A DNA stretch of 64,000 nt from Candidatus Bathyarchaeota archaeon (lineage in GTDB: Archaea > Thermoproteota > Bathyarchaeia > Bathyarchaeales > Bathycorpusculaceae). Every line of letters starts with the position of its first letter. Positions within the stretch are counted from its first letter, which is position 1. Below are positions 2,926-53,126 of the stretch, one piece after another. A model generated the notes under the pieces. That model worked only from the letters and a program-made list of their open reading frames with translations, was not told where the DNA came from and did no database searches. Made by a program: the position numbers and the translations under genes. The stretch is taken from assembly GCA_963733095.1 (NCBI GenBank), contig CAVTBV010000013.1:224001-288000 (forward strand), given 5' to 3'.

Positions 2926-4558
2926 TTGAGCTTTGAAATTAAAGAAAAAGATTTGCTGGGCAGAATCGGCAAACTAAAAACCAAAAGCGGCACAGTGGAA
3001 ACCCCGCTCCTGTTCCCCGTCATAAACCCCAGCATCCAACCCATCCCACCCCAAAAACTCAAGGACACCTTCGGCTTCCAAGCCGTCATCACAAACTCAT
3101 ACATAATCAAAAAACGGTTTGACAACAAACCCATAGAGTTGGGATTGCACAAATTCCTCAACTATGACGGCGCAGTAATGACCGATTCGGGTGCTTACCA
3201 AATTCTTGTTTACGGCGACATCGATGTTACCCAAAAAGAAATCGTCGCCTACCAAGAGGGTATCGGCAGCGACATCGCTACCATCCTCGACATCCCCACA
3301 GGCTGGAAAGTCACCAAAGAGCAAGCAGAAGTCACTGTGGCAGAAACCCTACGCCGCGCCAAAGCGTTCTTTAAAGAAAAAACCCGCGACGACATCCTCT
3401 GGGTTGGTCCCGTGCAGGGCGGAAAACACCTTGATCTCGTCGCCAACTCAGCCATAGAAATGGGAAAACTCCCCTTCCAAATACACGCGCTGGGCAGCCC
3501 AACCGAAGTTATGGAAAGCTACCGCTACGATGTCCTCGCAGACATGATATTAACTTGCAAGAAAGGCATTCCAATGGAACGTCCGTTGCACCTATTTGGC
3601 GCTGGACACCCCTCAATGTTCTCGTTGGCAGTCGCTTTGGGCTGTGACCTATTCGACTCCGCAGCTTATGCCCTTTACGCTCGGGAAAACCGTTACATGA
3701 CCGAAAACGGCACCTGGCGCCTAAACGAACTTGACTATTTCCCATGCAGCTGCCCCAGATGCAGCGCAGAAACGCCCCGGGGCTTAGAGAAAAAATCGCC
3801 CAAAGAACGCGAAATCTTCCTCGCTGAACATAACCTCTACGTTTGCCTCGCCGAACTAAAACGCATAAAACAAGCCATACGCGACGGCCGACTCTGGGAA
3901 CACACCGAAATGCGCGTCCACGCCCACCCAGCCCTGCTCTCAGCCCTTAAACACATCCGCAACCACGCAGAATTCCTCGAAAAATTCAGCCCAACAGCAA
4001 AAACCAGCGGCTTCTTCTACTTCGACTCTGTGGGGCTTGCACGACCAGAAATCACCCACTACCGCAAACGCCTAACCGAACGGTTCACGTACCACCCGCT
4101 GGATGCGAAGGTGCTTTTACTTGTGCCACAAACCCGAAACAAACCTTTCCATAAAGCGCCCGAATTCAAGAAAATCCGCCAATTGTTCAGAAGCTTAGGC
4201 AAGGAACTTGGCTGTCAAGTTCATATTTGTGTTTATTCGGCTCCGTTCGGGGTGGTTCCCTTGGAGCTCGATGAGGTTTACCCGCTTGTCTCAGCATGAA
4301 ACTGTACACCCATTTGATAGTGAAACAATAGACTATGTTGCAAACCAAACTGCAGAATACATAAAACGCTCAACTTACAAGAGCGTCGTCTTATTAAATG
4401 ACCCTAAAAACTGGAAGGACATTATCAAAAAAATCTGCTCAAAAACCTGCAAGACTGCGGATTTAGCGTTTAATTCTGTAGATGCCGATGTGCAGGGAAG
4501 CAGAGAAATTTTCAGCCGCTTAGAGACTATTTTAAAGGAGCAGTTAAGAAAAGTCTGA
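2926..4558 (+). CDS. tgtA: tRNA-guanine(15) transglycosylase (archaeosine TGT); one apparent +1 frameshift near 4286
   Basis: ETPLLFPVINP, MTDSGAYQ, HLFGAGHP, GCDLFDSAAY, zinc site CSCPRC...H; the expected YPL-SQHE continues in the 4208..4558 frame after an extra base in ccgcttgtctcag. Confidence 0.93.
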
Positions 4559-8240: not shown

Positions 8241-9074
8241 ACGGAAAAATCAACAGTGGCAATCGTGAAGGGTGAACGTGGGCTTGATCCCGTGTTTAAA
8301 GCCCTAGATTTAATCGATTACGAATCGGCTTTGGCTGGTTTTAAGAAGGTTCTCATAAAAGTTAACTTCATCACCACTATGACTTGGGATACAGGCGCAA
8401 CAACCGACCCCATCGTGGTTGAAGCGATAATTCAGCGCATAAAGAAACTGCCCGTTGAAATCTTCGTTGTGGAATCCGACGCAACAATGACAAACGCCGA
8501 CAAAGCCTTTGAAGCTACAGGTATGGCAGAGATGTGTAAGAAATACGACATCGAGTGCATTAACCTGCGTCATATCAAGGACAAAGTTAAAATCAAGATT
8601 CCTAGCGGTGAATGCCTAAACGATATAACTGTGCCCCGTATCGTAACTGAATCCGCAATCATTAGTGCCGCCAAAATGAAAACCCACATGGCAACCAAAG
8701 TCACCTTGGGCATGAAAAACATGTTCGGGCTCCTTCCAGACAAAATGAAGTTCAAATACCACGCCCGCGGCATAAGCAAAGTCATAGTTGACATAAACAC
8801 AGTCATAAAGCCACACTTGACCATTATTGACGGCTTCGTAGCTATGGAGGGACGCGGACCAACCGATGGGTCACCCCTCAAAATGGACCTAATACTCGCA
8901 GGCAAAGACCCTGTTGCAACCGACGCCACATGTGCACGCATAATGGGGTTAGACCCCCACGAAATCAGTCACATACGCACCGCTAACCAGAAAGGCATAG
9001 GTCAAATTGACGAAATAGAAACCGTGGGCTTAAATGTTGATGATGTGAAGCGTCCATTCAAGAAGGGTTGGTAG
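8241..9074 (+). CDS. DUF362 domain-containing protein
   Basis: KVLIKVN, TTDPIVVEA, AKMKTH, TLGMKNMFG, IIDG...EGRGP, DPVATD; track start GTG8256, possible ACG8241 start behind AGGTG. Confidence 0.88.
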   Translation, partial: TEKSTVAIVKGERGLDPVFKALDLIDYESALAGFKKVLIKVNFITTMTWDTGATTDPIVVEAIIQRIKKLPVEIFVVESDATMTNADKAFEATGMAEMCKKYDIECINLRHIKDKVKIKIPSGECLNDITVPRIVTESAIISAAKMKTHMATKVTLGMKNMFGLLPDKMKFKYHARGISKVIVDINTVIKPHLTIIDGFVAMEGRGPTDGSPLKMDLILAGKDPVATDATCARIMGLDPHEISHIRTANQKGIGQIDEIETVGLNVDDVKRPFKKGW

Positions 9075-9199
9075 TTCCCCTTCTTTTGTTTTCAGTACCG
9101 TGTTGATATGGCAGTGGAGCATTGGCGGATTTTTTGTTTAGGCAAGCGCAAGGATAATATATCTTGTCTTGGAATCATGTCTGCGAGGGTGCCGTTGCT

Positions 9200-39744: not shown

Positions 39745-40011
39745 CTAGATATCGCTGTTTTGCGGGGTTGCGGGATCTTTGGACCTGTAAACTATAATTC
39801 TGTTCTCATCTTCTTGCATTGCTAAATTATGTTTTTTTGCAAGGGCTCTTAATTTTTCTCGGTCTGGCTCGTAGATGGTGCCTTTAATGTATACTCGATA
39901 GCCTTCAGATTGGGTGTCTTTGTAGTTTTCAAAACAGACCGATGTTGGGGATAGTTCTTCGCATTGGCTTAAGACTTCTTTGAGGTAGTTAACTGCCTCA
40001 GTTCTATTCAT
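39745..40011 (-). CDS. Small hypothetical protein, paralog of 101..319
   Basis: MNRTEAVNYLKE...GYRVYIKG...KHNLAMQEDENRIIVYR; TTTTATAT promoter upstream. Confidence 0.75.
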   Translation of the reverse strand: MNRTEAVNYLKEVLSQCEELSPTSVCFENYKDTQSEGYRVYIKGTIYEPDREKLRALAKKHNLAMQEDENRIIVYRSKDPATPQNSDI

Positions 40012-40254
40012 TGGCATCCCCAAGTAGGTTTCTTACCTTTTGCTATATAAAAGCTTGCAATAATACTGTATTTTAGATAAACCTGCATCATGTATATTTT
40101 TTACTACCCTGATTGTTAAATATATGTCGAAGTCTCAGTCTTGAACTACATATTTGATGTAACCAAACTTCTCAAAAGAGGCTGTTTACCGAAGGTTGTA
40201 GCATCAAGCTGCAACCACAACGCCTTATATTTTTCGGCGAGTTACCTGTAAGTA

Positions 40255-40405
40255 GGAATGCAAGGGATAGCCAACAAAAGTTGAGCGGATCCGGCTGTTG
40301 ACATGGAGAAGGCTTCTGCCCAATTCCCTTTTGGGCCTTATCCGGTTAACGCATGGCTTGGTCCGCTTAACTCTCCTTTTGGGCTAAAATCAAGCCGACA
40401 TTTTT
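40255..40405 (+). ncRNA. Candidate structured non-coding RNA (unknown family)
   Basis: TATA CTTATATT at 40224-31; nested helices with G-U pairs on the plus strand; U-tract at 40401-05; trpS has its own promoter at ~40441-52. Confidence 0.6.
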
Positions 40406-40481
40406 CCTTAATTTTCTAGAATAGTATTTTTTGAGTGTGAAAAAGCATATATCATCAAACGCAAACCTCTTTGTTAAAGGC

Positions 40482-41633
40482 TTGGTGAACACGACGGCAT
40501 CCGCTGAAGAAAACAACAATGAAATGGTAGTTACGCCTTGGGAAGTTAAGGGCAAAGTTGACTATGAACGTCTCATAAAAGAATTCGGCACCCAACCCCT
40601 AACGCCCCAGTTGCTTGAACGAGTGGAGGAACACACTAACAAACTGCACCTGCAACTTGAACGCAAGATTTTCTTTAGCCATCGAGACCTTGACACAGTG
40701 CTTGACCTTTACGACAAGGGCACAAAATTCGTCTTGTATACAGGCAGAGGACCAAGCGGACCTGTCCACATCGGACACCTCGTTCCCTGGATTTTTACTC
40801 TCCACATCCAACAAAAATTTAAAACCCGGCTTTACTTCCAAATCACAGACGACGAAAAATACCTAATCAGCGACAACACAAACCTTGAAAAAACGGCAAA
40901 GTGGAGCTACGAAAATGCCCTGGACCTGGTCGCGCTGGGGTTCAAGCCGGAAGACACATTCATTATCTACGACACAAAAGATATCGACCTTCTCTATCCC
41001 ATCACATTGGAAGTAGCCAAACATATAACTTATAGCACAGCACGCAGTAGCTTTGGCTTCCAAGATAGCACTAACATCGGCTGGGTCTACTGGCCCGCCA
41101 TCCAAGCTGCACCCTGCTTCATACACAAAAAACTTACAGGTGAAAATGTCCCGGCCCTAATCCCGGCGGCCATTGATCAAGACCCCTACTGGCGAGTAAC
41201 TAGAGATGTAGCTCAAAAACTCGGCTACTACAAACCAGCTCAGATTCACTGTCGTTTCCTCCCCGGACTTGGTGCAGGAGGAAAAATGAGTGCCTCTCAA
41301 CCTGAAACAAGTATATTTACAACCGACCAACCCGATGTGGTCAAGAAGAAAATTTGGAATGCCTTCACAGGCGGCAAAGGCACGGCAGCAGAGCAACGTA
41401 AAGAAGGCGCGAATCCAACTATATGCAGCATATTTCAATACTACTTTTTCCTATTCGAAGAAGACAACCAAAAACTTGCTGAACGTGAACGCCGATGCCG
41501 CGGAGGAGAAATGTTGTGCGGCGAATGCAAAAAAGACATAGCGGAAAAACTCAATGTGTTCCTTCAAGAGCATCAGAAACGAAGGGAAGAAGCAAAAGGC
41601 ACCCTTGAACAATATCATATAAAGCGTGAATGA
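40482..41633 (+). CDS. trpS: Tryptophan--tRNA ligase (archaeal/eukaryotic type)
   Basis: VTPWEV, YTGRGPS..HIGH, QITDDEK, IDQDPYWR, KMSAS, CGECK; track start 40431 lies upstream of the TATA box. Confidence 0.97.
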   Translation: MVNTTASAEENNNEMVVTPWEVKGKVDYERLIKEFGTQPLTPQLLERVEEHTNKLHLQLERKIFFSHRDLDTVLDLYDKGTKFVLYTGRGPSGPVHIGHLVPWIFTLHIQQKFKTRLYFQITDDEKYLISDNTNLEKTAKWSYENALDLVALGFKPEDTFIIYDTKDIDLLYPITLEVAKHITYSTARSSFGFQDSTNIGWVYWPAIQAAPCFIHKKLTGENVPALIPAAIDQDPYWRVTRDVAQKLGYYKPAQIHCRFLPGLGAGGKMSASQPETSIFTTDQPDVVKKKIWNAFTGGKGTAAEQRKEGANPTICSIFQYYFFLFEEDNQKLAERERRCRGGEMLCGECKKDIAEKLNVFLQEHQKRREEAKGTLEQYHIKRE

Positions 41634-52855: not shown

Positions 52856-52942
52856 TTTCCATGCAAAACCGCTATTAAACATCCTTCTTTCAAGAATAAA
52901 AGCGAAGGTATATATGGTATTGTTGAACAGTTATGTTTCGTC

Positions 52943-53057
52943 TGCCGGTCAAAGGGCCCGGGTTCCACCTGATCCCATTCCGAACTCAGAAGTTAAACCG
53001 AGCTCCGTTTCCAGCTGTAGTGTGGTCTTAGGCCACGTGAACCTGGGAAAGCTGGCA
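52943..53057 (+). rRNA. rrf: 5S ribosomal RNA (stand-alone)
   Basis: Helix I TGCCGG/CTGGCA, conserved CACCTGATCCCATTCCGAACTCAGAAGTTAAAC, GGGAAAGCT 3' end; TATATA at 52909-14. Confidence 0.96.
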
Positions 53058-53126
53058 ACATTTCTATTCACACCTACGTTTTCAAGTGAGATTTAGCATA
53101 GCTTTATAACTGTCTTTTAATAGTTT

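Follow-up and report, generated by a model that had tools for sequence, protein, structure and literature searches.

A multicopy family of rod-shaped small RNA genes with its own promoter type in one genus of Bathyarchaeia

Upstream of trpS, in a 64,000-nucleotide stretch of the genome of a Candidatus Bathyarchaeota archaeon (contig CAVTBV010000013.1; this whole stretch is called the window below), lies a structured element that a preliminary description had proposed to be an undescribed small RNA (sRNA). Comparison of its homologues indicates that positions 40251-40380 of the + strand are a self-contained gene for a non-coding RNA of about 128 nucleotides (nt), one of several paralogues per genome. 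The element upstream of trpS is real, undescribed, multicopy and supported by covariation, and it has its own promoter type. The family to which it belongs is lineage-restricted, occurring in essentially one genus of Bathyarchaeia, archaea of peat and soil, and its members are very probably expressed structured RNA genes. Bathyarchaeia are among the most abundant archaea of sediments, peat and soils. The parts of the window copy are as follows.

40194-40231, + strand: putative promoter of the family type, a palindrome followed by ACAACGCC and the TATA box TTATAT (40225-40230)
40251-40279, + strand: single-stranded 5′ tail, with the probable RNA start at about 40251-40256, judged from the distance to the TATA box
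40280-40371, + strand: rod hairpin of about 35 base pairs (bp), with covariation in 94 homologues
40280-91 with 40360-71, + strand: P1, 12 bp
40292 with 40359, + strand: 1x1 mismatch
40293-96 with 40355-58, + strand: P2 (GGCT/GGCT), 3-4 bp, with G-U pairs
40351-54, + strand: one-sided bulge GCAT on the 3′ side (CNNG in the family)
40297-302 with 40345-50, + strand: P3, 6-7 bp across the family
40305-13 with 40335-43, + strand: P4, about 9 bp, with a small internal loop between P3 and P4
40314-40334, + strand: apical loop, C/U-rich, TTCTGCCCAATTCCCTTTTGG
40372-40380, + strand: short 3′ tail TCTCC and T-run TTTT (40377-40380), the probable end of the RNA
40381-40405, + strand: spacer with a second T5 run (40401-40405), unalignable among nine orthologues

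The + strand of 40255-40405 folds into the rod with an energy of -52.8 kcal/mol (z -2.37), matched by 2 of 200 dinucleotide shuffles, whereas the fold of the - strand is unremarkable (z -0.65). Covariation gives the same structure. In a 94-row alignment, A4, which was made with a covariance model whose structure was supplied (R2, below) and is therefore biased towards that structure, 31 pairs comprise 2874 pair cells, 90.5% of which are standard pairs. Both sides have changed in 23 of these 31 pairs (192 cells), and the covariation score is 0.293 compared with 0.177 +/- 0.005 after shuffling, none of 500 shuffles being as good. When the 3′ partners are shifted by 1-3 columns, pairing falls to 25-46%. 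In an alignment of 25 copies made with MAFFT only, 22 pairs are present and 7 of them show compensatory changes. G-U pairs are conserved, for example in 88 and 72 of the 94 sequences at two pairs, and because such pairs fit the + strand only, this is the strand of the RNA. The preliminary description of a highly structured rod on the plus strand is thus borne out. Within the rod, pairing of U40296 with G40351 is better supported than pairing with G40355, since the first bulge position gives UA in 36, UG in 36 and GC in 8 sequences. Of the 94 sequences, 89-94 retain C and GG at the bulge positions, and every class of the family has kept the sequence of the lower two thirds of the rod (P1-P3 with the asymmetric CNNG bulge). 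Three other candidates were dropped on reading the alignment: a bulge-helix-bulge intron, as the bulges are on one strand only; a 6S-like RNA, as there is no central bubble; and a small open reading frame (ORF), as substitutions follow the pairing.

The preliminary description had assembled two mutually exclusive folds from short complementary strings. Every string that it quoted is found in the window where it had been placed: CTTATATT (40224-31), TAGCC (40268-72), AGTTGAGCGGA (40279-89), GGAGAAGGC (40305-13), GCCTTATCC (40335-43), GTTAAC (40345-50), TCCGCTTAACT (40362-72), GGCTA (40382-86), TCAAGCCG (40390-97) and ACA-TTTTT (40398-405). Its long rod, fold A, holds in its core, where P1-P4 are supported by covariation in the 94 homologues, but not at either extremity. 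The outermost helix, TAGCC with GGCTA, is 71% paired in nine orthologues and lacks covariation, and a slide of +1 still gives 65%; the apical CCAA/TTGG pairing occurs in this genome only, other members having an open C/U-rich loop there. The alternative, three-hairpin fold B carries no conservation signal. Its third hairpin (40354-61 with 40390-97) is 46.7% paired in nine orthologues, with 52 of 500 shuffles as good, and its first (GATAGCC/GGCTGTT) is 73% paired in 94 sequences, with 58 of 500 shuffles as good. This first hairpin would seem to bring together two conserved motifs, AGCC and GGCU, that merely happen to be complementary, and nothing speaks in favour of a switch through the 4-bp AGCC/GGCU contact.

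The RNA is present in several diverged copies per genome. A DNA search of 40 relatives gave full-length matches in 8 congeneric genomes, with 75-83% identity, and several of these also contain partial second copies; on reading, these copies share a common layout. A first covariance model, R1, built on 25 copies, found four strong copies in the genome to which the window belongs (hereafter the own genome) together with one weaker, longer relative, and nhmmer returned the same four copies. The three strong copies outside the window are at C6:135936-136073 (- strand), C16:97485-97612 (+ strand) and C12:67325-67450 (+ strand). An IUPAC pattern for both strands of the rod, scanned over one genome per species (about 185,000 species; GTDB), gave 77 loci, 72 of which are titled Bathyarchaeota or Bathyarchaeia. 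R1 confirmed 75 of the 77, and the remaining two, which bear bacterial titles, are taken as chance matches to the pattern. Three confirmed loci are otherwise labelled (Methanocella sp., Acidoferrum sp. and Nitrososphaerota); the Acidoferrum label is probably a binning error, because that contig encodes archaeal eIF6 and L31e. The improved model, R2, detected the family in 33 of 41 genomes sampled from the own genus, at 1-11 copies per genome and with scores that run continuously down to about 30 bits. Matches to the model have a median length of 133 nt (range 124-143).

Wider scans delimit the family. Across the own order, R1 was positive in 8 of 13 own-genus genomes and matched 0 of 138 genomes from 62 other genera; across the class, R2 gave a single weak match outside the own genus (31 bits), in another genus of the same family. 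Both scans were strictly filtered, with few candidates scored, and absence is to be read only as not found in the genomes searched. On reading, the 31-bit match has the same promoter type, the GAAGCCAUC motif and the same rod layout, and the family therefore extends past the genus but diverges fast. In some genomes, copies that are identical or score equally lie a few kilobases apart: loci L047 and L065, exact duplicates on one contig of a relative; positions 3323-3454 and 8975-9106 of G001:C2; and three copies in genome G147. Such neighbouring copies point to recent local duplications within the family.

The longer relative, of about 165 nt, is the fifth match in the own genome and lies outside the window (G000:C12:101109-101271, + strand; locus L134/L138), between LonB and a DUF559 gene. 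This relative has a very conserved 5′ region, UUGCGAGAAAUAGCCAUCCAAGAGGUACACCCA, carries an additional hairpin within the loop and has the AUAGCCA motif in common with the trpS class. A BLAST search recovered it as a single copy in 73 of 89 own-genus genomes, with two matches in one genome, and did not recover it in 312 genomes from 116 other genera.

Every class carries a conserved upstream block of about 50 nt (consensus TtgTtg.ttcA..ttgtgacaACAttattTTATAT). In the window copy this block contains an imperfect palindrome with arms GGTTGTAGC (40194-40202) and GCTGCAACC (40208-40216). The palindrome of the family is TGTTG...CAACA, and in the trpS class both arms are altered in concert, to TTGTGG...CCACAA. 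In 88 of 90 copies, P1 is preceded at a distance of 41-65 nt by a TTATAT-like box; one of the two exceptions is truncated by a contig end and the other has TTTATA. In the own genome (2.84 Mb), the combined palindrome and TATA pattern matches exactly the four family genes, and GACAACAT-N3-5-TTATAT has three occurrences, all in family genes. The 42 tRNA genes that ARAGORN finds there lack the family promoter, bar one partial match. At a contig end, a tRNA-Lys(CUU) gene (G000:C2:142517-142663) is preceded by 14 nt, CATCAAGCTGCAAC, identical to the palindrome region of the window copy, and this is the only other occurrence of CATCAAGCTGCAAC in the own genome. Because this tRNA gene carries CATCAAGCTGCAAC, the upstream element may not be wholly private to the family. 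The box at a fixed distance and the T-run at the end of the copies agree with the independent transcription unit that had been proposed.

In the trpS class, conservation along the element is highest in GGAATGCAAGGGATAGCCAAC (40255-40275), a block of the 5′ tail in which 18 of 21 positions are invariant among nine orthologues that are 75-83% identical overall. Across the family the 5′ tails are 66% purine, class-specific and usually end in RAGCCAAC, with AGCC in 61 and AGCCAAC in 37 of 90 tails. The apical loops measure 10-28 nt, are 75% pyrimidine and typically read U(U)CCCC...UUUUU (CCCC in 37 and UUUU in 71 of 90 loops), and in the nine trpS-class orthologues five loop positions (T-G-.-C-C-A, 40317-40322) are invariant. 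Neither tail showed a pseudoknot signal: the 5′ tail was predicted to pair with the loop at -6.74 kcal/mol for cognate and -6.50 kcal/mol for non-cognate combinations, and with the 3′ tail at -3.01 and -3.38 kcal/mol, respectively.

At the other end, a T-run was located in 86 of 90 copies, and in 75 of these 86 the 3′ tail of 4-6 nt leads into a run of 4-5 T. The positions that follow the run are G/C/C/C in 54/51/60/60 of the 86 copies (window 40381-40384), which may reflect either a termination context or an RNA that runs a few nucleotides further. The preliminary description had placed the 3′ end at 40401-40405 and the length at about 145 nt. Because the DNA past 40380 is unconserved and the T-run of the family is that at 40377-40380, the RNA is more probably about 128 nt long (about 40251-40380) than 145-150 nt; the second T5 run at 40401-40405 may be a back-up stop in this genome only.

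No described RNA family accounts for the element, in agreement with the claim that it is undescribed. Searching the whole window with Rfam 15 covariance models at their gathering scores gave no match at the element, the sole match being 5S rRNA at 52941-53060, and a search of 39950-40550 (601 bases) with E values of up to 10 gave chance-level matches only (E of at least 5). The nearest score, also at chance level, was to the aspC motif RF04313 (17.7 bits compared with a gathering score of 100; E 6.2), which comes from a different organism group and context. Four loci of the long class likewise gave only chance matches to Rfam 15 at E up to 10, and ARAGORN found no tRNA in the window. Full-text literature searching, judged on listings and abstracts, found no description of small RNAs from Bathyarchaeia.

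The gene downstream of the window copy gives its class its name, with the following features.

40440-40453, + strand: separate promoter-like box for trpS, AAAAAGCATATATC, read from the sequence
40524-41633, + strand: trpS, encoding tryptophanyl-tRNA synthetase (Pfam tRNA-synt_1b, E 3.6e-23), with a probable ATG start at 40524

The trpS ORF spans 40431-41633, and its in-frame ATG at 40524 yields 369 amino acids (aa), compared with 368-386 aa in orthologues. On the other side of the RNA gene and divergent from it, a 92-aa ORF on the - strand (39745-40023) has a sub-threshold Pfam match to the 2-hydroxyglutaryl-CoA dehydratase D-component (E 0.0033) and may be a gene fragment. To describe the context of the family, the nearest ORF of at least 90 aa was taken on each side of 79 copies, and 149 of the 153 ORFs were scanned against Pfam, the four omitted belonging to the duplicate loci L065 and L084. 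Of the 13 scanned copies that carry the trpS-class 5′ motif, 7 have trpS as the nearest downstream ORF, 51-388 nt away and in the same orientation. Another class occupies the gap that separates L31e from eIF6, which are encoded on the other strand, at about a dozen loci, and further classes neighbour Cdc6 and histidine kinases, a radical-SAM/DUF3463 gene, CitG, ParA with PQQ-repeat proteins, or NrdD with Nop5. Each class keeps its own neighbours across species, and the orientation of the neighbours also differs by class. No neighbouring gene is common to all classes, which means that the RNA is not a leader of trpS and does not belong to a mobile element.

This distribution bears on two readings of what kind of element this is. 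A cis-acting leader or attenuator of trpS, a counterpart of a T-box or a tRNA mimic that is read through into the gene, would fit the shared strand, the 143 nt between the RNA and the trpS ATG, the 7 of 13 copies of the class that trpS follows, the T-run of only 4 T in this genome and the loop CCA, the letters of the Trp anticodon, in most orthologues. However, the same type of RNA stands beside unrelated genes, often convergent or antisense to them (eIF6/L31e, Cdc6, radical-SAM, LonB and others), so that the special tie to trpS suggested at the outset is not supported. Moreover, 6 of the 13 copies have no trpS following, the distance varies, trpS has its own promoter-like box and no T-box or riboswitch model matches; we regard a leader as very unlikely. 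A repeated DNA element, such as a miniature inverted-repeat transposable element or a palindromic repeat, is more improbable still. The copies are multiple, some with identical scores sit a few kilobases apart, and the rod is self-complementary. Yet the conserved G-U pairs would turn into A-C mismatches if the opposite strand were read, compensatory changes keep the pairing, each class shows synteny across species, and promoter and T-run frame the copies in one fixed orientation.

We give least credence of all to an atypical H/ACA-like pseudouridylation guide, which the preliminary description had raised on finding an ACA before the T-run at 40398-405. Archaeal H/ACA guide sRNAs are, like this RNA, hairpin RNAs of similar size with a short 3′ tail, but they are marked by a conserved ACA, a pseudouridylation pocket and a kink-turn (K-turn) or K-loop. 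Of 90 family members, 9 have an ACA in the tail that separates P1 from the T-run, as does 1 of the 17 that carry the trpS-class 5′ motif, and the ACA at 40398-400 falls beyond the conserved end, in non-conserved DNA. Covariation supports a near-continuous rod interrupted only by a 1x1 mismatch, a one-sided bulge of 3-4 nt and a small internal loop, with no two-sided pocket, and hairpins 1 and 3 of fold B are at the level of shuffled sequences. No conserved GA/AG tandem, the K-turn signature, was seen on reading a 78-row alignment, and no H/ACA model of Rfam 15 matches. A C/D box sRNA was likewise rejected, as none of 90 copies has RUGAUGA with CUGA downstream of it, and 2 of 90 contain UGAUGA anywhere.

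As to function, we lean towards protein-bound, co-regulated 'sibling' sRNAs that would act in trans and form a lineage-restricted family of paralogues. Action by base-pairing is a more tentative proposal, to which we give somewhat less than an even chance. Co-regulation is suggested because the promoter is shared and dedicated: with each gene under its own long, family-specific promoter, the copies would probably be switched on together by one DNA-binding regulator. A common protein is suggested because the scaffold is conserved in sequence and has invariant bulge nucleotides; the rod and the U-tracts most likely bind this protein, which would stabilise the RNA, and an Sm-like protein is the obvious candidate. 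Archaeal Sm-like proteins prefer U-tracts and are known sRNA binders in archaea. Finally, the exposed tails are class-specific yet invariant among orthologues, which suggests class-specific partners that the 5′ tail and the loop would contact in trans.

Several observations weigh against such sibling sRNAs. The longest antisense matches in the own genome, 13-17 nt, are at chance level. Start codons show no excess of sequences complementary to the 5′ motifs (for example, 18 observed compared with 22.6 expected, over 2156 crude gene calls). The loops pair with Shine-Dalgarno sequences no better than shuffled loops do, CCUCC occurs in 0 of 90 loops, and a Shine-Dalgarno-like tail also does no better than shuffles; short seeds could escape the antisense, start-codon and anti-Shine-Dalgarno tests. 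Complements of the GTTGGCT type were not found in 5S or signal recognition particle RNA, and 16S rRNA holds only the 6-mers TTGGCT and GGCTAT. No protein partner is encoded at a constant position next to the copies, and the palindrome could be something other than a regulator site. RAGCCAAC, being common to the classes, would fit a shared binding site better than a class-specific seed. A search for RNA sequencing runs that contain the stretch found none, and the contigs of one run gave a 167-nt piece of a relative, which looks DNA-like and, because it includes the promoter, is silent on transcripts. Processing of the kind seen for microRNAs was rejected, as the own genome (95% complete) has no RNase III or Piwi domain.

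Some of these points fit a structural or sequestering RNA, the scaffold or decoy of a protein complex, that has no base-pairing targets and whose paralogues serve dosage or present differing surfaces. P1-P3 and the bulge nucleotides are conserved in sequence in all classes, RAGCCAAC, next to P1, is common to the classes, every target search was negative, and the longer relative, single-copy in most genomes of the genus (73 of 89), resembles a core component. However, the nearly invariant 5′ tails within each class suggest class-specific partners, and no repeated short protein-binding motif of the kind found in known decoy RNAs is evident; we put such a ribonucleoprotein role at clearly less probable than sibling sRNAs, although above the two readings that follow. 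The family might supply the RNA of an archaeal RNA-guided or RNA-scaffolded system not yet described, an unlikely reading in which the rod docks a protein encoded in trans, the 5′ tail (about 20-30 nt) guides and the palindromic promoter acts as one switch. The tail would then guide to conserved cellular RNAs, and an 18-bp match of the trpS-class tail would make 16S rRNA the first candidate among them. That match also underlies a slightly less probable idea, that the trpS-class copy uses its invariant 5′ block to pair with 16S rRNA, or with the 16S precursor, and helps in assembly or modification. The predicted duplex is discontinuous (40251-40274 with 16S about 398-422), includes 9 contiguous pairs (GGGAUAGCC/GGCUAUCCC) and draws its paired nucleotides from within the invariant block; its energy of -26.4 kcal/mol is reached by 0 of 100 shuffled tails (mean -19.8, s.d. 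2.1). Against it, in one genome (G012) a G-to-A change within the 9-bp core of the RNA is uncompensated, the 16S segment being 100% identical over 111 nt; the three other paralogues of the own genome give no signal (12-13 of 40 shuffles as good); and one match among several tests is weak.

Other RNA genes of the own genome were noted in passing. The archaeal RNase P RNA model found nothing above its cut-off in this 95% complete genome: the best match, G000:C3:91550-91710, is only 161 nt long and reaches 24.5 bits compared with a gathering score of 84, so that the RNase P RNA could be reduced or its gene missing from the assembly. The 16S rRNA gene lies at G000:C11:37629-39122, and the DNA downstream of it is unlike a spacer leading to 23S rRNA. 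The archaeal large-subunit model did not find a 23S gene, nor was a sarcin-ricin-loop motif present anywhere in the assembly, and the 5S gene stands alone in the window (52941-53060); the rRNA genes appear to be unlinked, or the 23S gene unassembled. None of the 42 tRNA genes that ARAGORN reports is for Trp or Tyr, and these two may have unusual introns or be unassembled.

The RNA described here offers a clean new Rfam family, with up to 11 copies per genome and strong covariation support. Its distinctive shared promoter points to a dedicated regulator, for which the motif can serve as a search tool, and its members can be tested as a set for binding to Sm-like and other RNA-binding proteins. 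Should the 5′ tails prove to act as guides or seeds, the family would be among the few multigene sRNA regulons known in archaea.

Lineage-specific regulatory sRNAs are known in archaea from Methanosarcina and Haloferax. The Bathyarchaeia RNAs resemble them in being restricted to a genus, non-coding and probably independently transcribed, with an oligo-U end; those sRNAs are mostly single-copy and were defined by RNA sequencing, whereas the present family is multigene and defined by covariation. In bacteria, sibling (that is, paralogous) families of trans-acting sRNAs include LhrC1-5, Qrr1-5 and OmrA/B, and by analogy such siblings would be the closest kind to the Bathyarchaeia RNAs, as a functional kind and not a family by homology. 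The csrB sibling sRNAs (PMC6262261) provide another bacterial case. What defines genes of this sort is seen here too, with several paralogues outside coding regions, each with its own promoter (TATA box in 88 of 90 copies) and T-run (86 of 90). The likeness lies in the presence of several diverged genes per genome that each have an oligo-U end and an individual promoter of one common type, and in a conserved scaffold with exposed, conserved single-stranded segments, including C-rich loops as in the UCCC-motif sRNAs. The Bathyarchaeia family has no sequence relationship to the bacterial siblings and no anti-Shine-Dalgarno signal beyond composition, and it differs from them in its archaeal promoter, a TATA box with a palindrome, and in a much longer rod of about 35 bp.

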